Origin: an uncultured bacterium
Lineage (GTDB): Bacteria > Krumholzibacteriota > Krumholzibacteriia > JACNKJ01
Length of the DNA stretch: 64,000 nt
Direction of reading: 5' to 3'
NCBI GenBank assembly: GCA_963695095.1
Contig: CAVOFT010000001.1
Span: 1,718,902-1,782,901, forward strand
Shown here piece after piece: positions 54,881 to 64,000 of this stretch. The notes beneath the pieces were generated by a model. It was given only the letters and a program-made list of their open reading frames with translations. It was not told the origin of the DNA and did no database searches. The number at the start of each line of letters is the position of its first letter. Positions within the stretch are counted from its first letter, which is position 1. The position numbers and the translations under genes are program-made.

Positions 54881-55975
54881 ATGGCGGGGCCTGCCGCCGG
54901 CTTCCGGCGCCTGCTTCTGCTCGCCGACGGCGCCCTGGCCAGGCCGAATGCGAAGACGGCCTTCGCCGTGCTGCGCTTCCAGCCGGAGCGAGCCGTGGCG
55001 CTGCTGGACCGCGAGACCGCCGGCTGCTCGGCCCAGGAGGTGCTGGGCTACGGGGGCGCGCTGCCCATCCTGGCCAGCGTCGCCGAGGCCCTGCCGCTGG
55101 CGCCCGACGGTCTGCTCGTCGGCGTCGCCCCGGCGGGCGGCGGCCTGCCCCCGGCCTACGTCCCCTTCTGCGTCGATGCCCTGGCCGCGGGTCTGGATCT
55201 CGCCAGCGGCCTGCATCGCTTTCTCGGTGAGGATCCCGAGTGGGCGTCGCGCGCGGCGAGCGGTGGCGCCCGCATCTGGGACCTGCGCCGACCGCCCGCA
55301 GCGCTGCGCGTGGCCACCGCGCCGCGGCCGCGGCGAGCGCGCGTGCTGCTCAGCGTGGGCAGCGACTGCAAGGTGGGCAAGATGACGGCCACCCTCCTCC
55401 TCGCCCGCGAGCTCGCAGCGCGCGGCCGGCGCGCGCGGGTGCTGGCCACGGGGCAGACCGGGCTCTTCCTCACCGGCGAGGGCATCTGCGTGGACGCCCT
55501 GCCGGCCGACTTCGTGGCCGGCGCCGTGCAGGCGGGTCTGGACGCCCTGGAGGGCGAGGCCGCGCCCGGTGCTACGCCGCCCGAGTGGCTGCTCGTCGAG
55601 GGCCAGGGTTCGCTCGCTCACCCCGCCTTCTCCGGCGTGAGCCTGGGCCTCCTCCACGGCAGCGCACCCGATGCGCTGCTGCTCTGCCATGAGGCCGGCC
55701 GGCGCCTCACCTCGCACATGGCGGACTGGCCGCTGCCGCCCCTGGCCGAAGTGCGCCGGCAGGTGGAAACCGCCGCGGCCTGGCTGAAGCCCGCTTCCGT
55801 CATCGCCGTGGCGCTGAACACGGCGGCCCTCGCCGAGAGCGCGGCGCGCGCCGCCTGCACGGAGCTCGCCGCCGAGCTCGGGCTCGCCGTCACCGATCCC
55901 CTGCGCTTCGGCGCGGCGGCCCTGGCCGACGCCCTGAGCGCCTTCCCGGGGAAGCAGAAGGAGGCTCCGGCATGA
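54881..55975 (+). CDS. DUF1611 domain protein (DgcN-like)
   Basis: AKTA; GVAPAGG; SGLH; [11 protein letters not shown]; ATGQTG; DFVAGA; [15 protein letters not shown]; DPLRFG. Confidence 0.88.
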
Positions 55976-57030
55976 AGCCGCGGCTCACGATCGAGACCCT
56001 GCGCCTGACGACGCGCTATCCCTTTGTCATCGCGCGGGGCGGGGCGCAGCAGTTCGAGAATCTCGTCCTCGCGATCGAGGCCGACGGCCTCGTGGGCGAG
56101 GGCGAGGGCAGTCCCACGCACTACTATGGCGAGACGCCGGCAATCAGCCGCGCGGCGCTGGAGTTCCTGCTCGCGGAGCTGGCGGAGCCGCTGGCGGCGG
56201 CGCTCGCCACGCTGTCGCCGGAGGCCATCGCGGCCCTCATGGCCGCCGCCGATCGCCGGCTGGCCGGCAATCCGGCCGCCAAGGCCGCCCTGGACGGCGC
56301 GCTCTGGGACCTCCACGGCAAGCAGCAGGGCGCGCCCGTCTGGCGGCTGCTCGGATTCACGGAGCCCGCGCGCCTGGCCAGCTCCTTCACCATCGCCCTG
56401 GCTGAGCCCGAACTGATGCTCGCGCGGGCCGAGGAGGCGGTGGCGGCCGGCTACGGCATCCTCAAGCTCAAGGCCGGCAGCGAGCGGGACATCGAGCTGG
56501 TGGAGGCCGTCGCCGCGGCCACGGGTGCGCGCCTGCGCGTGGACGCGAACGGGAGCTGGCGCGCCGCCGATGCCCTCGCCAAGCTCGAGCGCCTGGCCAT
56601 GGCCGGCGTCGAGTTCGTCGAGCAGCCGCTGGAGCTGGACGACCTCGCCGGCTACCGCGCCCTCGTCAGTCGCGCGCCGCTGCCCATCGTGCTCGACGAG
56701 AGCGTCCACGATGCGCTGGGCCTGGAGGTCTTCGGCGAGCTGGCCGACGGCATCAACCTGAAGATCTCCAAGCTGGGCGGGATCACGCGTTCGCTCGCCC
56801 TCGCCCGCAGCGCGCGGGTCTTGAACCTCGACCTGATGATGGGCTGCATGATCGAAAGCAGTCTGGGCATTGCCCAGGCGCTGCAGCTCGCGCCTTTGCT
56901 GCGCTGGGCGGACCTGGACGGCGCGCTGCTGCTCGCCGCCGACCCCTACGCGGGCTTGACCGAGGCGGCGGGGGTCTTCACCCTGGGCGAGGAACCGGGT
57001 CTGGGCGTTCATCGGAGGGAGGCTCGCTGA
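55972..57030 (+). CDS. Dipeptide (L-Ala-D/L-Glu) epimerase, enolase superfamily
   Basis: PFVIARG; ALWDL; KLK; RVDANG; VEQPL; DES; NLKISKLGG; GCMIES; DLDG. Confidence 0.9.
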
Positions 57031-57545
57031 TGCGACTCAAGCAGGTGGCCGTGATCGGAGACGCGGAGGCTTCCGAAGCCGCCCTCGTCTTCGCCGAAGC
57101 GCTGGGCCGCGCCATCGGACGCCACGGCTGGGCGCTCGTCTCGGGCGGCCGGGACGGCGTGATGGGCGCGGCCAGCCGCGGCTGCCGCGCGGCGGGGGGC
57201 ATCGTCGTCGGTATCCTGCCCAGCGCCGACGACAGCGCCGGCAACGAGCACTGCCAGGTGCTCCTGCCCACGGGCATGGGCTGGACGCGCAACAGTCTCA
57301 CCGCCCTGGCGGGGGACGTCGTCGTCGCCATCGGCGGCCGCGCCGGCACGCTCACCGAGATCGCCTATGCCTGGAGCTACGGCAAGCCCATCCTGGCCGC
57401 GACCGGCCTGGGCGGCTGGAGCGAGCGCCTGGCCGGCGAGGCCATCGACGACCGCCGACCCGACCGCCTGCAACCGGTGGCCACGGCGGCGGCGGCCGAG
57501 GCGGCCCTGCTGGCCCTGCTCGGCGAGGGCGAGGCCCGCGCGTGA
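57030..57545 (+). CDS. TIGR00725/LOG-like Rossmann-fold protein
   Basis: VAVIG; GGRDGVMGAASRG; VGILP; TGMGWTRN; GGRAGTLTE. Confidence 0.85.
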   Translation: MRLKQVAVIGDAEASEAALVFAEALGRAIGRHGWALVSGGRDGVMGAASRGCRAAGGIVVGILPSADDSAGNEHCQVLLPTGMGWTRNSLTALAGDVVVAIGGRAGTLTEIAYAWSYGKPILAATGLGGWSERLAGEAIDDRRPDRLQPVATAAAAEAALLALLGEGEARA

Positions 57546-58807
57546 GGCCGCTGCCGCGCATCCGCGAATCCGGACTCCGCGAGCTGCCCAGGCGCCTCGT
57601 CTGGCTTGGCCTGGCCCTGGCGCTGGCCGAACGCCTGCTGGCCTGGCTCCTGCTCGGCGCCGGCCTGCCCACGCACGGCTTCGAATCCGGGGTGATCGCG
57701 GACAACCTGCTCGCCGGGCGCGGCTACACGATGCCCTTCTACTACTGCGACGTGCCGATCCGCTCCTTCATCCCGCCGCTCTATCCGCTGCTGATGGCGG
57801 CCGCCAAGGCGCTCAGCCCGCACTGGGTGCTCCTGCTCCAGGGCCTGCAAATCGCAGCCTCCCTGCTCAACGCCCTGCTCGCCGGCGAGATCGCGGGCCG
57901 CTGGTTCGGTCGCCGCGCGATGATCGGCAGCTTCTTCCTCGTCGCGCTCTACCCGGTCTTCGCGGTCTACTCGCTGGCCATCTTCTCGACCACGCTGATC
58001 ATGACCTGGGTGCTCGTCCTGGTGAACCTGATGGATCGCGTCGAGGCCCCGCATCCCCTGCGCATGGGCGGCCTGACCGGACTCTTCCACGGCCTGGCCA
58101 TTCTCACCTCGCCGCCGCTGGGCCTGCTCGGCCTGCTCTTCCTGTTCCGGCTCTGGCGCTTCCGGCACCCGGGGCGGCTGCGGCGCACCCTGGCCTACCT
58201 GGCGGTGCTCGCCGCCGTCTGGAGCCCCTGGGTCCTGCGCAATGCGCGCGTCCATGGCACGCTCCTGCTGACCAGCACGAACGGCGGCTTCAACTTCCTG
58301 GTCGGCAACAACCCGCATGCGGGCGGCTACACCTGGGGCGAGTTCACCCTGGAGGACAGGTTCTGGCAGGTGGTGGAGCGCGAGCGCGTGGACACGCTGC
58401 CCGAGCCGGCCCTCGAGCGCTGGTTCTACCGCCGCGCCCTGGGCTACATCGCCGCCGATCCCTGGCACTACCTGGGCTTCTTCCTGCAGAAGGTCTACTA
58501 CTTCTGGTGGTGCCGCGACGTCACGCGCTTCGGCTATCCGACGCCCTGGAGCGTCGCCTACCAGTCGCTCTACGCCTTCCTGTTGCCATTCGTTCTGCTG
58601 GGCCTGCTGCTCTGGGCCCGCCGCTGGCGCCGGCTCTTTCCGGCCTACTTCCTGTTCGCCCAGTACAGTCTGCTCTACGGGCTCTACTTCGTGCGCAGCC
58701 GCTTCCGGTGGGAGATCGAGCCCCTGCTCCTGGTGTTCGCCGTGGCCGGCTGGCTGGAGATCCTGCGCCGCTTGCGCGGCGGCGCCCGCGCAGAGGAGGA
58801 GTGGTGA
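57542..58807 (+). CDS. GT-C (ArnT/PMT-like) membrane glycosyltransferase
   Basis: IADNLLAGRGY; PPLYP; PWVLRN; GGFNFLVGNNP; RFR; multiple TMs. Confidence 0.75.
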   Translation: MRPLPRIRESGLRELPRRLVWLGLALALAERLLAWLLLGAGLPTHGFESGVIADNLLAGRGYTMPFYYCDVPIRSFIPPLYPLLMAAAKALSPHWVLLLQGLQIAASLLNALLAGEIAGRWFGRRAMIGSFFLVALYPVFAVYSLAIFSTTLIMTWVLVLVNLMDRVEAPHPLRMGGLTGLFHGLAILTSPPLGLLGLLFLFRLWRFRHPGRLRRTLAYLAVLAAVWSPWVLRNARVHGTLLLTSTNGGFNFLVGNNPHAGGYTWGEFTLEDRFWQVVERERVDTLPEPALERWFYRRALGYIAADPWHYLGFFLQKVYYFWWCRDVTRFGYPTPWSVAYQSLYAFLLPFVLLGLLLWARRWRRLFPAYFLFAQYSLLYGLYFVRSRFRWEIEPLLLVFAVAGWLEILRRLRGGARAEEEW

Positions 58808-59232
58808 TCCATCCCATGCTCTGGGCCGCGCTCGCGAGCGGGCTGGCGGCCCAGCTCTACAAGGTGCTCGTCGAGAGTCTGCGCGAGCGGCGCCTGAAGC
58901 TCTACCGCTTCTTCGAAACCGGCGGCATGCCCAGCAGCCACACGGCCGTGGTGACCAGCCTCGCCGTCGGCGCCTGGCGGGTCAACGGCTTCGACTCGCC
59001 CTTGTTCGCGATCACGGCCGTCTTCAGCCTCTACTTCATCCTGGAGGCCACCGGTCTGCGCCAGGAGGTGGGCAAGCAGGCGCGGGTGCTCAACGAGATC
59101 CTCGACGAGCTGATCGACACCCGCCATTTCGCCCGCGAGCGCACCCGCGAGCTGCTCGGCCACACCTGGAGCGAGGTGGGCTGGGGCTTCTTGCTCGGCC
59201 TGGTGGTGACCGTGCTGCTGGTCCGACCCTGA
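58804..59232 (+). CDS. Divergent PAP2 family protein (DUF212)
   Basis: AQLYK; TGGMPSSHTA; ATGLRQEVGKQARVLN; ELLGHTWSEV. Confidence 0.9.
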   Translation: MIHPMLWAALASGLAAQLYKVLVESLRERRLKLYRFFETGGMPSSHTAVVTSLAVGAWRVNGFDSPLFAITAVFSLYFILEATGLRQEVGKQARVLNEILDELIDTRHFARERTRELLGHTWSEVGWGFLLGLVVTVLLVRP

Positions 59233-59260
59233 ACGCCGCCGATTCCCGAGCAGGAAATCC

Positions 59261-59360
59261 TTGACGGTTTTCGGACCTCGCCGCACCATCCGCAAGCGGA
59301 GACCCCGACAGCCCTGCGCGCCATCCGAGCGGGTCCTCCGGGCGCCCGGACTCAGGAGGT
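59261..59360 (+). promoter_or_regulatory. Promoter and structured leader of the parA-CBM48 operon
   Basis: TTGACG(59261-59266)-N17-CACCAT; 14-bp palindrome TCCGGGCGCCCGGA (59337-59350); RBS AGGAGGT. Confidence 0.5.
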
Positions 59361-59366
59361 AATCGG

Positions 59367-60449
59367 ATGAAGGTACTGGCCGTCGTCAATCAGAAGGGGG
59401 GCTGCGGCAAGACCACCCTGGCGATCCACCTTGCCGCCGCCTGGGCCAAGGAGGGCTTCCGGGTCCTGCTCGTGGACCTCGATCCCCAGGGTCATGCCTC
59501 GCTCGGCCTCGGCGTCGAAGTCGAGAACTGCGCTCGCGGCTCCTACGATCTGCTCAGCGATCCCGCGGCGACGCTGGCCGAGATGGCCGTGCCGGTCCAG
59601 GCCCATCTCGACCTGGTGCCCGGCGGCATCATCCTCTCGGCCGCCGAGCAGGAGCTGGCCCGCCAGCCCGGACGGGAGAGCCGTCTGCGCAGCGCACTCC
59701 TGCGCCACGGGGGCGCCTACGACTGGGTCGTGGTGGATACGGCGCCTGCGGTGGGGCTGCTGACCTTCAATGCCCTGGTGGCGGCCGATGCCCTGCTCGT
59801 GCCCGTCGACAGCAGCACCTTCACCCTGCACGGCCTGCAGAAGATTCTCGAGACCCTGGAAGTGCTCGAAGAGGAAACGCGCCGCCGGCCGGCCTGCTTC
59901 GTGGCGGCCAACCAGTTCGACCCGCGCACGCTCTTCAGCCGCGAGCTCTATGCCGAGCTGGCGGCCAACAGCCGGATCCGTCTGCTCGAAACGCGCGTGC
60001 GCAGCAGCGTCCGCGTCAAGATGGCCGCCGCCGGCGGCGTGCCCGTCATGGACCTGGCGCAGCCGGGGCCCGTCCGCCTGGACTTCGAGAACCTGGCCGA
60101 GGAGCTGTGGAACCATCTCACCGAGCTCAGCCTGGAGCGGGACCGCGAACTGGAGTCCCTGCTCTTCGGCCCCCAGCTCTGCGAGGAGGGCATCCGCTTC
60201 CGCCTGCGCGCCCCCGAGGCGCGCGAGGTCTATCTCACCGGCAGCTTCAACCACTGGAATCCCGGCGGCATCCCGCTCGCGCCGCGACCCGGGGCCAGCG
60301 GCGCCTGGGAGGTCGTGCTGCCCCTGACGCCGGGCAACTACGAGTACCGCTACATCGTCGACGGCCGGTGGGTGACCGATCCCAGCCATCAGCAGACCCG
60401 CCTCAACGACCTGGGCGTGGAGAACTCGCTGCTCGTCGTCGGCGGCTAG
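59367..60449 (+). CDS. ParA/Soj-family ATPase fused to a C-terminal AMPK-type glycogen-binding CBM48 domain
   Basis: ParA: NQKGGCGKTT, VDLDPQGHAS, VVDTAP, NALVAAD. CBM48: APEAREVYLTGSFNHW...GAWEVVLPLTPGNYEYRYIVDGRWVTDP...NS. Confidence 0.9.
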   Translation: MKVLAVVNQKGGCGKTTLAIHLAAAWAKEGFRVLLVDLDPQGHASLGLGVEVENCARGSYDLLSDPAATLAEMAVPVQAHLDLVPGGIILSAAEQELARQPGRESRLRSALLRHGGAYDWVVVDTAPAVGLLTFNALVAADALLVPVDSSTFTLHGLQKILETLEVLEEETRRRPACFVAANQFDPRTLFSRELYAELAANSRIRLLETRVRSSVRVKMAAAGGVPVMDLAQPGPVRLDFENLAEELWNHLTELSLERDRELESLLFGPQLCEEGIRFRLRAPEAREVYLTGSFNHWNPGGIPLAPRPGASGAWEVVLPLTPGNYEYRYIVDGRWVTDPSHQQTRLNDLGVENSLLVVGG

Positions 60450-60465
60450 CGCGAAGGGGCGCCGC

Positions 60466-61168
60466 ATGAGGCCGGCGAGCGGAGAGCGACGCCAGAGCAA
60501 TCACATCCGCAGCATTTCCTGGCTCTTCCTGAGCGAGGGCAAGCGGCGCGCCGGCCCTGCCCCTGGCACCGCCCACTGCCTGCTGCCGCCTCGCGGGAGC
60601 GCCCGGCTCGCCCTGGTTGCTCGCCCTGGCCGTGAATCTGGGCCTCGCCGCTCGCCAGCGGGGCGAGAGCGCCTGCCTCGAGTTGCCGGCCGCCAGCCTC
60701 CCGGTGGCGGCCCGTCTTCTCGGCGCGGCGCCGGAGGCCCTCGGCCTCGACTGGCGCAGCGGCGCCGCGGCGCCCGCCTGGCTGGAGCCGCTGCCGGCGC
60801 TCTATCTCGCCTCCGCGCTGCCTACGCTGCCGCTGGGCCTGCCCGCCTGCCGCTGGCGCTTCCAGCTCGGCGAGGGGCCGCTGCCGGGGGCAAGTCCCGT
60901 CCTCGCCCTGCTGGAAGGTCCCGAAGCGCTGCTGCCGGCGGCGGCGGGCGCGCCGCTCTTCCTGCTTGGCCTGGAGTGCCTGCCGGTGCCCCGCCCCGGG
61001 GTGACGGGGATCTGGGGGCCGCTGGCTCGGCACCAGCTCCTCGATCCGCGCCGCGAAGGCACGCCTGCCCTCCGCGCGGGGGACGCAGCGGTCGCCCGCC
61101 GCTATGGCGGCTTCCTGGAAGCGCTCCGTTCCATGCCGGCGCCCAGTCGGCAGGAGCAGCCCGCATGA
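60466..61168 (+). CDS. Hypothetical protein resembling a degenerate ParA/MinD-like fold (frameshift between about 60533 and 60615)
   Basis: N-terminus MRPASG..IRSISWLFLS in one frame; continues in the +1 frame as CRLAGAPGSPWLLALAVNLGLAARQRGESACLE; its stop overlaps the next ATG. Confidence 0.45.
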
Positions 61169-61488
61169 GCCCCGCCGCGCCCAGCCCTGCGCAGCTCCCG
61201 GCGATGGAGCCCGTGGTGGCCGTGCTCCTGCGGCGCTTCGAGCTGCAGCTCACCCAGCTCGACGCGCGCATCCGCCTCGAGGAGAGCCCCCTGCGCCGGG
61301 TCTATCGCCTCGACGATCAGGTGCTCGCCGTGCTGCATCTGCATCGGGACCTCTTCCGCCTGGAGACGGGCGGCGTACCGAGCTGGGAGGCCCGGATCCG
61401 CAGCCCGGAAGAGGCCCTGGCCGGCCTCGCCCGCGTGCTGGACCACTACTGGCGGCTCCTGGCGAGCGGCGCGCGGCGCGAAGCCTGA
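61165..61488 (+). CDS. Small hypothetical protein
   Basis: ATGA overlap; RBS AGGAG; globular-looking 107 aa with coding-like codon usage. Confidence 0.65.
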   Translation: MSPAAPSPAQLPAMEPVVAVLLRRFELQLTQLDARIRLEESPLRRVYRLDDQVLAVLHLHRDLFRLETGGVPSWEARIRSPEEALAGLARVLDHYWRLLASGARREA

Positions 61489-61596
61489 GCCGCGCCGCGG
61501 CCGTCCCGATGCCCCTGGACTTGCCCCTGAGCTTGCGGCATCATGGCGGCCGGATTTGTCGCCACGGCCGCCAGGCCGCCAACCCCGGAGAGAGCC

Positions 61597-63042
61597 ATGA
61601 AGGACAAGGTGCTCGCGGCCATCGAGACGGCGCGCCTGCGCGGCGCCGACTACGCCGATGCCCGCTGGGTCGAGACCCGCACGGAAGAGCTGATGGTGAA
61701 GAACGGCGCCCTCGCTCTGGCCGAGCTGCGCGGCACGCAGGGGGTCGGCATCCGCGTGCTCAAGGGCGGCGCCTGGGGTTTCGCCGCCACGGATCGCCTG
61801 GAAGGCGACAGCCTCCCCGCGGCCGCTGCGCGCGCCGTTGCCCTGGCCGAAGCCAGCGCGCGGGTGATGGCCGAGCCCGTGCGCCTGGCCGCCGAGCCGG
61901 CGGTCAAGGCCAGCTGGGCGACGCCGCGCGCCATCGATCCCTTCGCGGTCGCCCGCGAGGAGAAGCTCGATCTGCTCAGCCGCGTCGAGCGGGAGCTGCA
62001 TGTCGACGAGCGGGTGAAGGTGGGCCAGGCCCAGATGCTCTTCGACCAGCAGAAGATCCTCTTCGTCTCCAGCGAGGGCGCCGAACTCGAGCAGGACCTG
62101 CTCACCAGCGGCGGCGGCCTGGTCGCCATCGCGGCGGACGGCAACACCATCGAGCGCCGCAGCTGGCCCAACTCGGCCGGCGGCATGCACCTGGGCGCGG
62201 GCTACGAGGTGATCGCCGAGTATGCGCTCGCGGACAACGCCCGCCGGGCGGCGGAAGAGGCCGTGGCCCTGCTCGGCGCCGATCCCTGCCCGGTGGGGGA
62301 GCGGGACATCCTGCTCGACTGGTCGCAGCTCGCCCTGCAGATCCACGAGTCCTGCGGGCACGCCAGCGAGCTGGACCGCGTGCTCGGCATGGAGGCCAAC
62401 TTCGCCGGCCGCAGCTTCCTGACGCCCGAGAAGCTGGGCGTGTTCACCTACGGCTCGCCGCAGGTGAACCTGGTCGCCGACAATACCCTGCCCCGGGGCC
62501 TGGCCACGCGCGGCTGGGACGATGAGGGCGTGGCGGCGCAGAAGTGGCATGTCGTCGAGAACGGGCGCTTCGCCGCCTATCTCACCAGCCGCGAGCTGGC
62601 CGCGGTGGAGAAGAACCCGCGCAGTCGCGGCTGCAATCGGGCCGAGGGCTGGAATCGCATTCCCATCATCCGCATTCCGAACCTCGGCCTGGCACCGGGC
62701 AGCTGGGAGCTGGACGATCTCATCGCCGACAGCGAAGACGGCATCTGGATGGAGACGAACCGCAGCTGGAGCATCGACCAGATGCGGCTGAATTTCCAGT
62801 TCTCCACCGAGATCGGCTGGGAGATCAAGAAGGGCAAGAAGGCGCGCATGCTGCGCGGCTGCACCTACCAGGGGCGCACGCCGGACTTCTGGGCCGCCTG
62901 CGATGCCGTCTGCAGCGAGAAGTGGTGGCGGCCCTATGGCGTCCTCAACTGCGGCAAGGGAGAGCCAGGGCAGATCGCCCGCATGACGCACGGCTCGGCC
63001 CCGGCCCGCTTCCGCAAGATCCGCGTGGGGGTGAGCGAATGA
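61597..63042 (+). CDS. tldD: TldD family metalloprotease
   Basis: YADAR; GVGIRV; GAWGFA; IHESCGHASELD (HExxxH); WDDEG; CGKGEPGQ. Confidence 0.92.
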   Translation: MKDKVLAAIETARLRGADYADARWVETRTEELMVKNGALALAELRGTQGVGIRVLKGGAWGFAATDRLEGDSLPAAAARAVALAEASARVMAEPVRLAAEPAVKASWATPRAIDPFAVAREEKLDLLSRVERELHVDERVKVGQAQMLFDQQKILFVSSEGAELEQDLLTSGGGLVAIAADGNTIERRSWPNSAGGMHLGAGYEVIAEYALADNARRAAEEAVALLGADPCPVGERDILLDWSQLALQIHESCGHASELDRVLGMEANFAGRSFLTPEKLGVFTYGSPQVNLVADNTLPRGLATRGWDDEGVAAQKWHVVENGRFAAYLTSRELAAVEKNPRSRGCNRAEGWNRIPIIRIPNLGLAPGSWELDDLIADSEDGIWMETNRSWSIDQMRLNFQFSTEIGWEIKKGKKARMLRGCTYQGRTPDFWAACDAVCSEKWWRPYGVLNCGKGEPGQIARMTHGSAPARFRKIRVGVSE

Positions 63043-63998
63043 TCGGCGAGCAGGAATTCCGGGCGATCCGGGAGCGGGTGCTGAAGGCCAGCCAGGCTGA
63101 CGAAGTCGAGCTCACGCTGGGCGGCGGCCGCGAGGAGCTGACGCGCTTCGGCGAGAATCGCATCACCCAGAACGTCTCCGAGGAGCGCTACGAGCTGCGG
63201 GTGCGCGCGCGCCTGGGCAAGCGGCAGGGCCTGGCCACCACCAATGACCTCTCGCCGGCGGGGCTTGCCCGCTGTGTCGAGAACGCCGAAGCCATCGCCC
63301 GCATCCAGCCCGAGAGCGAGCGGGTGATCGAGTTCCAGGCGGGCGGCGAGCGCTGCGAGGACGGCGCCTGGGCCGCCGACACCGCTGCTATCGACGCTGC
63401 CGCCCGGGCCCGCTGGGTGGAGACGGCCGTCAAGGTGGCCGCCGGCCAGGGCATCGAGCTCGGCGGCATCGCGCTGGCGAGCGAGGGCTCCATCGGCGAC
63501 TACGGCGAGATCGAGCCCTTCGCCGTGGCCAACAGCGCGGGCCTGTTCCGCTTCGGCAAGAAGACGCGCGCCGTCTTCGAGGTGAGCGCGGCCAAGGCCG
63601 ACGGCGCCGGGCGCAGCCGCGTGCTGGCCAGGAGCGCGGCGGCGGTGGATCCCGCGCGCATCGCCGAGGACGCCTGCCGGCGCTGCCTGGAGAGCCGCGA
63701 GCCCGCCACGCTCGCGCCGGGGGACTACACGGTGATCTTCGAGGCCGAGGCCGCCCAGGATCTGCTCTTCTTCCTCACCTACCTTGGCTTCAACGGGCTG
63801 GCGGTGGCCGAGAAGCGCAGTCCGCTGGGCGAGCGGCTCGGCGAGCGCGTCTTCGGCGAGAACATCACGCTGCGCGAGGTGCCGTCGGATGCGAGGCTCT
63901 TCGGCCTCGGCTTCGATGCGGAGGGCGTGGATACGCAGGCGGTGACGCTCATCGACAAGGGCGTGCTCACGAGCTTCCTGCACGACCGCAGCAGCGCC
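63039..63998 (+). CDS. TldE/PmbA family protein (3' end outside window)
   Basis: ATGA overlap with tldD; LTRFGENRITQN; LAPGDYTVIFE; FDAEG. Confidence 0.85.
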   Translation, partial: MIGEQEFRAIRERVLKASQADEVELTLGGGREELTRFGENRITQNVSEERYELRVRARLGKRQGLATTNDLSPAGLARCVENAEAIARIQPESERVIEFQAGGERCEDGAWAADTAAIDAAARARWVETAVKVAAGQGIELGGIALASEGSIGDYGEIEPFAVANSAGLFRFGKKTRAVFEVSAAKADGAGRSRVLARSAAAVDPARIAEDACRRCLESREPATLAPGDYTVIFEAEAAQDLLFFLTYLGFNGLAVAEKRSPLGERLGERVFGENITLREVPSDARLFGLGFDAEGVDTQAVTLIDKGVLTSFLHDRSSA

Positions 63999-64000
63999 CG

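Follow-up and report, generated by a model that had tools for sequence, protein, structure and literature searches.

A ParA-type ATPase joined to an AMPK-beta-type CBM48 module in Krumholzibacteriota: a conserved operon and a candidate alpha-glucan positioning system

The ParA-CBM gene

A gene encoding a Soj/ParA-like ATPase joined to a carbohydrate-binding module of family CBM48, here termed ParA-CBM, was identified on a stretch of 64,000 nucleotides (the window) from an uncultured bacterium of the phylum Krumholzibacteriota (positions 1,718,902 to 1,782,901 of contig CAVOFT010000001.1, assembly GCA_963695095.1). The gene is located at 59367..60449 on the forward strand, starts with ATG and encodes 360 amino acids (aa) followed by a stop codon. 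It is not a lone gene, being the first of an operon in which it is followed by a partner gene, X, and then by a third gene, Y.

Four Pfam families matched the product above their gathering thresholds, namely AAA_31 at aa 1-171 (E 2.3e-43, 148.6 bits with a cut-off of 27), CbiA at aa 4-226 (71 bits, cut-off 25.4), CBM_48 (PF02922) at aa 267-335 (43.4 bits, cut-off 22.4) and AMPK1_CBM (PF16561) at aa 284-358 (E 3.5e-13, 50 bits, cut-off 26.8). The ATPase domain spans aa 1-253 (59367..60125, forward strand) and is connected by a poorly conserved linker of aa 254-266 (60126-60164) to the AMPK-beta-type CBM48 at aa 267-358 (60165..60440), which was aligned with the CBMs of AMPK beta1 and beta2 over about 70 residues in a phmmer search of the PDB (E about 1e-9). 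A first-pass annotation, made from the letters of the window without database searches, had described this same pairing of a ParA/Soj ATPase with a CBM48, and all of the motifs that it quoted were found in the translation. For the ATPase these are KGGCGKTT (Walker A, aa 10-17, 59394-59417), DLDPQ (aa 37-41), VVVDTAP (Walker B, containing D124), FDPRT (containing R187) and SSVR (containing R216), and for the CBM they are GSFNHW (aa 292-297), GAW (aa 312-314) and YEYRYIVDGRWVTDP (aa 325-339). The architecture is real.

A Shine-Dalgarno-like AGGAGG is present at 59354-59359, 7 nucleotides 5' of the ATG, in keeping with the strong ribosome-binding site that had been proposed. The promoter of its own that had been ascribed to the gene found no backing, as a scan of 58700-61700 for sigma-70 promoters and terminators returned 0 and 0 sites; with a promoter expectation of 0.0, this consensus scan is uninformative, the organism having a G+C content of 72%. 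ParA-CBM possesses no signal peptide or membrane segment, and strand 1 and the Walker A motif of the ATPase lie right at its N-terminus. The CBM is therefore expected to be cytoplasmic, where glycogen is the known polysaccharide.

Conserved residues of the ATPase and the CBM

The closest solved structures to the ATPase domain are chromosomal ParA/Soj proteins (8RAY, E 1.1e-36; Thermus Soj, 1WCV/2BEK; Helicobacter Soj, 6IUB), with structures of McdA, ParF, MinD and MipZ scoring far lower (E about 5e-15 for McdA 6NOO/6NON). Residue conservation was examined in an alignment of 43 ParA-CBM orthologues from the phylum of the window (A5) and in a mixed set (A2), both being unbiased sets. Loci from other phyla were found with two peptide patterns, one for Walker A and one for the CBM, and the invariance of K10, C13, K15, R328 and W335 across phyla is thus partly by construction. 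Within A5, the signature lysine K10 along with K15, D37, D39 and D124 were invariant (43/43), R187 was retained in 41 of the 43 sequences, and positions 216 and 218 were each occupied by arginine or lysine in every sequence. When aligned to solved relatives, R187 and R216 correspond to R189 and R218 of Soj, two basic residues that have been named as important to the non-specific binding of DNA (PMC3778016). The earlier placing of arginines at the Soj DNA-binding positions is hence upheld at the level of alignment, which makes these residues candidates for the same role. The cysteine of the Walker A motif (KGGCGKT) was observed in 41 of the 43 phylum sequences and 18/18 of the mixed set, and the canonical ParA of the same genome has a valine at this position.

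For the CBM, the phmmer alignment with AMPK beta maps W100 to W297, K126 to R328, W133 to W335, G147 to G350 and N150 to N353. W297, W335, G350 and N353 were invariant in A5, with R328 retained in 40 of the 43 sequences. Substitutions W100G and K126Q in AMPK beta abolish glycogen binding, while W133L weakens it (PMC6274970). The first-pass annotation had pointed to conserved carbohydrate-binding aromatic residues, and the invariance of both tryptophans agrees with this as far as alignment can suggest.

Mean pairwise identity within the phylum (A5) was 58.5% for the CBM and 51.3% for the ATPase, with the CBM value being the higher in 771 of 903 pairs. Corresponding values were 46.3% and 47.8% in the mixed set, and 39.3% and 43.5% across phyla, where the set was partly selected by the CBM pattern; in this same partly selected cross-phylum set, columns conserved at 90% or more numbered 15 of 91 for the CBM and 40 of 253 for the ATPase. 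The CBM is no less conserved than the ATPase within the phylum.

Partner gene X

X was identified at 60466..61168 on the forward strand, its open reading frame (ORF) beginning 16 nucleotides past the ParA-CBM stop codon. A relative of X was found 3' of the fusion in the window and in all 20 loci of the phylum that were fetched with 8-kb flanks (tblastn, E <= 0.01). In the window, X is split by a +1 frameshift located between 60537 and 60557, with tblastn using an intact relative matching 60466-60537 and 60557-61126, and it is unbroken in two genomes of the same genus (G169 and G006). DNA alignment with two same-genus genomes showed a stretch of variable length at the frameshift site, a pattern in which assembly error and real mutation are indistinguishable. 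No public sequencing run contained at least half of the words sampled from 59300-61500 (best share 0.11), and no RNA run was listed. The frameshift may represent an assembly indel or a system that is decaying in this strain.

Pfam gave nothing above threshold for X of the window, P-loop families being sub-threshold or without a match, and two members from other phyla matched AAA_31 or ParA, either weakly or by a narrow margin over the threshold. An AlphaFold2 model was obtained for X of G169 (pLDDT 77, pTM 0.73, from a 43-sequence alignment). Its top Foldseek matches all belong to the ParA/MinD family (FleN, BcsQ, FlhG, NifH, MinD and MipZ), the best being a weak one to FleN 5J1J (E 3.7e-3, probability 0.99, TM 0.46), and the position of Walker A was found to be degenerate in the alignment of X (A1). 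Because of these two observations, X is modelled as a dead ParA/MinD fold without Walker A. It is also fast-evolving, the mean column identity being 19% over 43 sequences.

Conservation in X is highest in an N-terminal motif, which takes the forms '..RHIRDIAHLYLS', '..LRDVSHLFLS' and '..NHIRSISWLFLS' in the phylum. A loose pattern matched it in 43 of 47 phylum loci, and a 44th (L021) misses the pattern only through a tryptophan that is also present in the window. Across phyla the motif was found in 40 of 76 loci, typically as '..LGRGLEDVSHLFLS', 3 of the 79 loci having been dropped for a downstream flank shorter than 300 nucleotides. The motif by which ParB proteins bind ParA has been described as aliphatic residues around a central arginine or lysine and as sufficient for stimulation of ParA (PMC12462528). 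Since the motif of X resembles both this description and the N-terminus of the canonical ParB of its own genome ('..KKVLGKGLDAILS' / '..VLGKGLDAILS'), it may be read as a ParB-type peptide that binds and activates ParA. The statement of the first-pass annotation that no parB is adjacent accordingly stands in part, as no ParB/Srx-HTH protein was found (the downstream ORFs have no Pfam match), but X carries a ParB-like N-terminal motif.

A complex of two ATPase domains, two ATP and X was predicted with a score of 0.58, against 0.02 for the best of three controls. The runs agreed in at least 53% of contacts, and the partner pLDDT was at least 58. Of 80 solved complexes, 58 reach the mark applied to such predictions, as do 2 of 110 mismatched pairs; complexes that reach it with scores of 0.60 or lower comprise only 7 of the 80 solved complexes and both of the passing mismatches. 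Moreover, the job differed from those with which the tool was calibrated in its custom alignments and the inclusion of ATP, and likeness to solved ParA dimers may raise the score.

Distribution and inheritance

ParA-CBM was searched for in a sample of 201 genomes of the phylum, with carriers defined by a full-length match at E <= 1e-40. Carriers amounted to 146 of the 201 genomes, 93 of the 125 high-quality genomes and 66 of 80 genera, and each was found to have one copy except G078, which has two. The nearest named records are Krumholzibacteriota. On a maximum-likelihood tree of 46 copies, family labels changed seven times, the minimum for eight families, as opposed to a mean of 28.6 changes with shuffled labels (none of 200 shuffles being as low as 7). 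Within the phylum, inheritance of the fusion is vertical and its distribution is broad.

A scan of one genome per species identified at least 592 related stretches. The best 79 of these were all full-length fusions, with at least 341 of 360 residues matched at 33-76% identity, under labels of Krumholzibacteriota, Eisenbacteria, Latescibacterota, Gemmatimonadales, Fibrobacteraceae, Desulfobacterota/Thermodesulfobacteriota, Myxococcota, several Planctomycetota orders, Omnitrophota, Rokubacteria, Acidobacteria, Margulisiibacteriota and others. The search for this architecture that had been suggested alongside the first-pass annotation thus returned full-length copies in many phyla, across which the distribution of the fusion is patchy.

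Other ParA genes were noted in the genome of the window. Locus L002 (G000:C1:149067-152747) contains a canonical parA (259 aa, with KGGVGKT) and a parB (321 aa), downstream of a 278-aa ORF, and a third ParA-like gene is located at C1:2770857-2771597. The two ParA-CBM copies of G078, a complete genome (L063 and L064, on C1), group with the copy of G029 in the tree; the second precedes a 646-aa ORF with an X-like N-terminus and a polytopic membrane region, which holds a masked stretch.

Alpha-glucan genes in carrier genomes

The genome of the window was found to encode glgA (in two frames), two glgC-like genes, a GlgX-like isoamylase, two GH57 genes and a GT35-like gene. Its sole TIGR02095-type glycogen synthase matches in two frames 31 nucleotides apart (L082, G000:C1:1991031-1992480), and same-genus G006 has this synthase in one frame.

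Genes for alpha-glucan metabolism were found adjoining the fusion in some other genomes. In G029 (L070, contig C33, 7829-17670) ParA-CBM is followed by a free AMPK1_CBM protein, two GT5 genes and GH57, GT35, GH57 and GH77-like genes; this cluster is compact and divergent, and the locus has no X, Y or DUF212 (a membrane protein gene described below). In G078 the fusion, X and Y are followed by a free AMPK1_CBM protein (64 bits) and an N-terminal fragment of a GT5 protein. Overall, GlgA, GlgC, GT5, GH57 or GlgB-like genes were identified in the fetched flanks of eight of the 79 cross-phylum loci (L090, which is that of G029, L097, L105, L111, L131, L134, L136 and L161), giving a binomial P of about 2e-4 under a rough assumption of a 2% chance per locus. 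This count excludes L112, where a GlgX-like match (E 3e-6) and a second CBM are present. GT5-like tblastn matches at L092-L094, L099, L104, L107 and L108 showed 24-29% identity, are probably other glycosyltransferases and were not counted.

Co-occurrence with glycogen genes, another check that had been proposed, was examined in the phylum sample. glgA was found in 117 of the 146 carriers and in 28 of the 55 non-carriers, an association that is overstated because related genomes were counted as independent. In family f1 the fusion and glgA occur in the same 6 of 11 genomes, and the genera g2 (0/4) and g3 (0/1) possess neither.

Gene Y and the flanking genes

Y (61165..61488, forward strand) encodes 107 aa, and its start overlaps the stop codon of X (ATGA). 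A relative of Y was found in the window and in 14 of the 20 fetched phylum loci; tblastn did not find one in families f4 and f6 or at the second G078 copy. Among 35 aligned Y sequences, R77 is invariant. Y had no match in Pfam or PADLOC and none in Foldseek at E <= 1e-3, and its best ESM Atlas score (0.80) was under the meaningful level. Its model (pLDDT 89, pTM 0.79) has an alpha-beta5-alpha sandwich topology, and the best of 50 listed structure matches were YjbR (Z 8.7) and frataxin/YdhG-like proteins (Z 7.8), both near background, with no nuclease fold found among the 50.

In other phyla, the gene after X encodes a NucS_C-like nuclease-fold protein without the catalytic lysine (motif read from alignment A6), for which the Pfam NucS_C match is weak (E 0.0023). 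No relationship between Y and this protein was shown by profile comparison (hhalign probability 0.3%). In records labelled Rokubacteria, Gemmatimonadales, Acidobacteria and Desulfobacterales, the ParB-like motif was found fused straight to the NucS-like fold. At L124, L141, L142, L144, L114, L109 and L121, the first gene after ParA-CBM was seen to have the ParB-like motif and an apparently inactive NucS-like fold. As the motif here sits on a NucS-like fold in place of a dead ParA fold, it seems that the activating peptide can be moved as a module.

Directly 5' of the fusion in the window is a gene for DUF212, a divergent membrane protein of the PAP2 family (58816..59232, forward strand; Pfam PF02681, E 2.3e-37). 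This conserved upstream neighbour holds the same position in 15 of the 20 fetched phylum loci and in 8 of 9 further loci, and it was found in 16 of the 79 cross-phylum loci, all of these being Krumholzibacteriota-like, Gemmatimonadales or Fibrobacteraceae records. Beyond it, the flanks of the fusion are syntenic within families and made up of ordinary genes: DUF1611, an MR_MLE epimerase, SLOG, PMT_2 and TldD/PmbA in family f1; APH kinase, NamZ, SBP_bac_5 and ClpB in f3; and a helicase, a SurA-like protein, Wzy_C and a GT4-family transferase (Glycos_transf_4) in f4. Within the window, a DUF1611 P-loop protein with an MR_MLE-type epimerase, a SLOG cluster-4 protein and a PMT_2 GT-C glycosyltransferase are encoded upstream at 54881-58807, and a TldD/PmbA pair downstream at 61543-64000. 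Flanking ORFs meet end to end or share a few bases (55972/55972, 57030, 57542/57545), suggesting a long co-directional gene string.

Proposed mechanism

A mode of action may be proposed in which ParA-CBM, on binding ATP, would form a sandwich dimer like that of Soj, and this dimer would be held on the nucleoid by non-specific DNA binding through R187, R216 and K218. The two C-terminal CBM48 modules would grip intracellular alpha-glucan (glycogen), so that particles become tethered to, or spread along, the nucleoid. X, produced from the same operon, would dock its ParB-like N-terminal motif on the dimer, leading to hydrolysis of ATP and reset of the tether, and this reset would supply the turnover that ParA/MinD positioning systems need. 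Y would act as an accessory, with an inactive NucS-like nuclease-fold domain in its place in other phyla.

The system is accordingly put forward, tentatively and with a little less than even confidence, as one that tethers or positions alpha-glucan in association with the nucleoid. The first-pass annotation had arrived at glycogen positioning from the ATPase and the CBM. Its notion of a ParA with a cargo has gained an operon partner with a ParB-like motif and the adjacency of glycogen genes in unrelated lineages, but five carriers that gave no match to six alpha-glucan enzyme families do not fit the glycogen part of it. It may further be supposed, though with more doubt, that the system is a widespread one for partition or positioning of glycogen particles, ranging from Krumholzibacteriota to Planctomycetota, Omnitrophota, Desulfobacterota, Myxococcota and Rokubacteria, in which the ParA itself would carry the cargo module and a pseudo-ParA or pseudo-nuclease with a borrowed ParB-type peptide would reset it. 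If true, the usual layout of ATPase, adaptor and cargo would be inverted.

Several observations weigh against the alpha-glucan reading. Five genomes that are 91-96% complete (G022, G028, G111, G059 and G078) gave no match to any of six alpha-glucan enzyme families (glgA TIGR02095, GT5 PF08323, GlgB TIGR01515, GT35 PF00343, GH57 PF03065 and GH13 PF00128), with control genomes being positive in each search. All five keep ParA-CBM, X and Y, and four also keep DUF212, the exception being the G078 loci; the binding residues of their CBMs are conserved (A5). The ligand in these five is therefore not glycogen made by known enzymes. Carriers without glycogen pathways had been named in the first-pass annotation as evidence that would speak against its proposal, and these five good genomes supply it in part. 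G180 and G035 likewise lack the five alpha-glucan enzyme families that were searched in them, and at the family level the fusion was found in 10 of 12 genomes of f8 with TIGR02095-type glgA in 0/12, and in 8 of 23 genomes of f5 with glgA in 1/23. X and glgA are both broken in the one 2-contig assembly of the window. The design is unusual, with the putative cargo-binding module on the ATPase rather than on an adaptor, and the predicted complex lends weak support to an interaction with X. An AMPK1_CBM-like domain is also present in an Omp85-family protein, so a Pfam match alone is no proof of glycogen binding. This Omp85-family outer-membrane protein (34.7 bits for the domain) is encoded on the reverse strand at L080:9121-10746 (G000:C1, about 2609120-2610745), where it adjoins a GlgX-like isoamylase gene, and similar ORFs of about 690 aa that contain the domain were seen in the glycogen-less genomes.

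Alternative explanations

The glycogen-less carriers, the family-level counts of f8 and f5 and the reuse of the domain in the Omp85 protein are the reasons for which the glycogen reading is kept below an even chance and a substantial minority share is given to another ligand or cargo. On this alternative, which is considered unlikely but the most probable of the rivals, the CBM-like domain binds another glycan or a protein and the system positions or regulates a different cargo, such as the machinery for envelope polysaccharides. BcsQ, which serves cellulose synthase, would be a parallel, and ParA-CBM has a sub-threshold match to the NCBIfam BcsQ model (81 bits, cut-off 158). The conserved CBM residues in the five genomes would be accounted for, the most constant neighbour is the PAP2-like membrane protein DUF212, and envelope-glycan genes are found nearby (PMT_2 in the window; Wzy_C and Glycos_transf_4 in f4). 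These envelope genes, however, are conserved only inside single families, the CBM would be cytoplasmic, its most conserved positions are those that bind glycogen in AMPK beta, and glycogen clusters abut the fusion in unrelated phyla.

A preprint of October 2026 (bioRxiv 10.64898/2026.10.19.760177), which is a computational study, names this architecture 'ParA-CBM', places it in a clade ConB5 and reads it as an immune system, with rapid divergence of the CBM as an argument. As an anti-phage or anti-plasmid conflict system, the CBM would sense an infection-linked change in carbohydrate, and multimers of ParA together with the inactive ParA and the inactive nuclease-fold protein would block the invader. 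The gene set in the preprint is the same, comprising ParA with AMPK1_CBM, an inactive second ParA and an inactive restriction endonuclease (REase), and the fast evolution of X, the NucS-like third gene without its catalytic lysine in other phyla and the scatter of the family over many phyla would all suit such a role. Rapid CBM divergence was not reproduced in any of the three sets compared above. The presence of a single copy in most genomes of the phylum with a tree that matches families, and the ordinary syntenic neighbours, with no mobile-element or defence genes among those annotated, are also at odds with it. PADLOC, when run on ParA-CBM, X, Y, DUF212 and the free CBM protein, returned only weak P-loop matches, and the ParB-type motif of X, to judge from its sequence, would point to a normal ParA hydrolysis cycle. 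For this clade the immune reading is thus considered less likely than positioning by a ParA cycle, and it is regarded as rather improbable.

ParA-CBM could instead be a sensor of glycogen status, with glucan on the CBM modulating a Soj-like regulatory activity on DNA, comparable to AMPK, which is inhibited by glycogen through its CBM (PMC6274970). Its CBM is of the AMPK-beta type, the ATPase is nearest to chromosomal Soj/ParA, and the separate canonical parAB pair of the same genome would leave this copy free for another role. No result points to a regulatory target, though, and the dedicated partner with its ParB-like motif and the operon would rather fit a self-contained ParA cycle. Glycogen-less carriers count against a sensor as well, and it is judged the most improbable of these explanations.

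Relevance of the system

Among the papers listed in literature searches on ParA with CBM48, on glycogen positioning by ParA-like proteins and on McdA with glycogen granules, no experimental characterisation was found, the above preprint being the sole relevant item. The claim of the first-pass annotation that no such system has been characterised therefore holds for experiments, but must be limited to these, as the architecture is in print as a computational description. The ParA-CBM gene set was hence already noted, and what is added here comprises the ParB-like motif, the pattern of CBM conservation, vertical inheritance, adjacency to glycogen clusters and the existence of glycogen-less carriers. 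The main text of the preprint, to which this comparison applies, contains neither 'N-terminal peptide' nor 'activating peptide', and the ParB-like motif of X appears to be new relative to it.

Chromosomes, plasmids, carboxysomes and chemoreceptor arrays are served by known ParA/MinD systems, and to our knowledge the arrangement and inheritance of glycogen particles in bacteria are largely unexplored. The ParA-CBM operon is a directly testable candidate in this respect, being small and offering clear point mutants (K10/K15, R187, W297/W335 and the N-terminal motif of X) along with simple read-outs. Housekeeping positioning and immunity are opposed readings between which comparative genomics alone cannot decide. 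The glycogen-less carriers, if they hold up, would point to a new ligand of a CBM48-type module or an unrecognised alpha-glucan metabolism.

Comparison with known systems

ConB5 as described in the preprint resembles the present system in having a ParA with a C-terminal AMPK1_CBM and an inactive second ParA, with an inactive REase-fold protein in other phyla. It differs in that the third gene in the phylum of the window is Y, for which no relationship to the nuclease-fold protein was shown, and in that the CBM here is not fast-evolving and the distribution in the phylum is broad and vertical.

The CBM keeps the Trp, Lys and Trp positions of the AMPK beta CBM (1Z0M, 1Z0N, 2F15) as W297, R328 and W335, with Lys126 replaced by Arg (40/43), and is borne by a bacterial ParA and not by a kinase scaffold.

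Features shared with ParABS include a deviant Walker A ATPase that is nearest to solved Soj/ParA, basic residues at the positions of Soj R189 and R218, and an N-terminus of X that resembles the motif through which ParB binds ParA. The ParA-CBM locus differs in lacking a ParB/Srx-HTH protein and any sign of a parS site, in a partner whose body is modelled as a ParA/MinD fold lacking Walker A (or is an inactive nuclease fold in other phyla), and in the C-terminal CBM48 of the ATPase, a canonical parAB pair being found elsewhere in the genome. With no ParB present and a score of 117.4 bits for the NCBIfam ParA_partition equivalog, below its cut-off of 180, ParA-CBM is not a member of ParABS; in its proposed cycle, the system would work like ParA/MinD positioning systems.

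FleN, BcsQ and FlhG are the best structural matches of the X model. FlhG also activates a partner NTPase, by means of an N-terminal helix. X differs from these proteins in its lack of Walker A and in its sub-threshold or absent Pfam P-loop matches, and the structural matches on which the likeness is founded are weak.

The McdA/McdB system and other ParA/MinD cargo-positioning systems pair an orphan ParA-type ATPase with a partner that is small, evolves fast and is encoded in the same operon, as do ParA-CBM and X. Distribution of a storage or metabolic body in the cytoplasm, with the nucleoid serving as its matrix, is proposed for ParA-CBM also. ParA-CBM is closer to Soj than to McdA, and its Walker A keeps the signature lysine. 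In the known ParA cargo systems it is the adaptor, and not the ATPase, that binds the cargo. ParA-CBM would be unusual for the field in carrying the putative cargo module on the ATPase itself, with a dead paralogue bearing a ParB-like peptide as its candidate activator.

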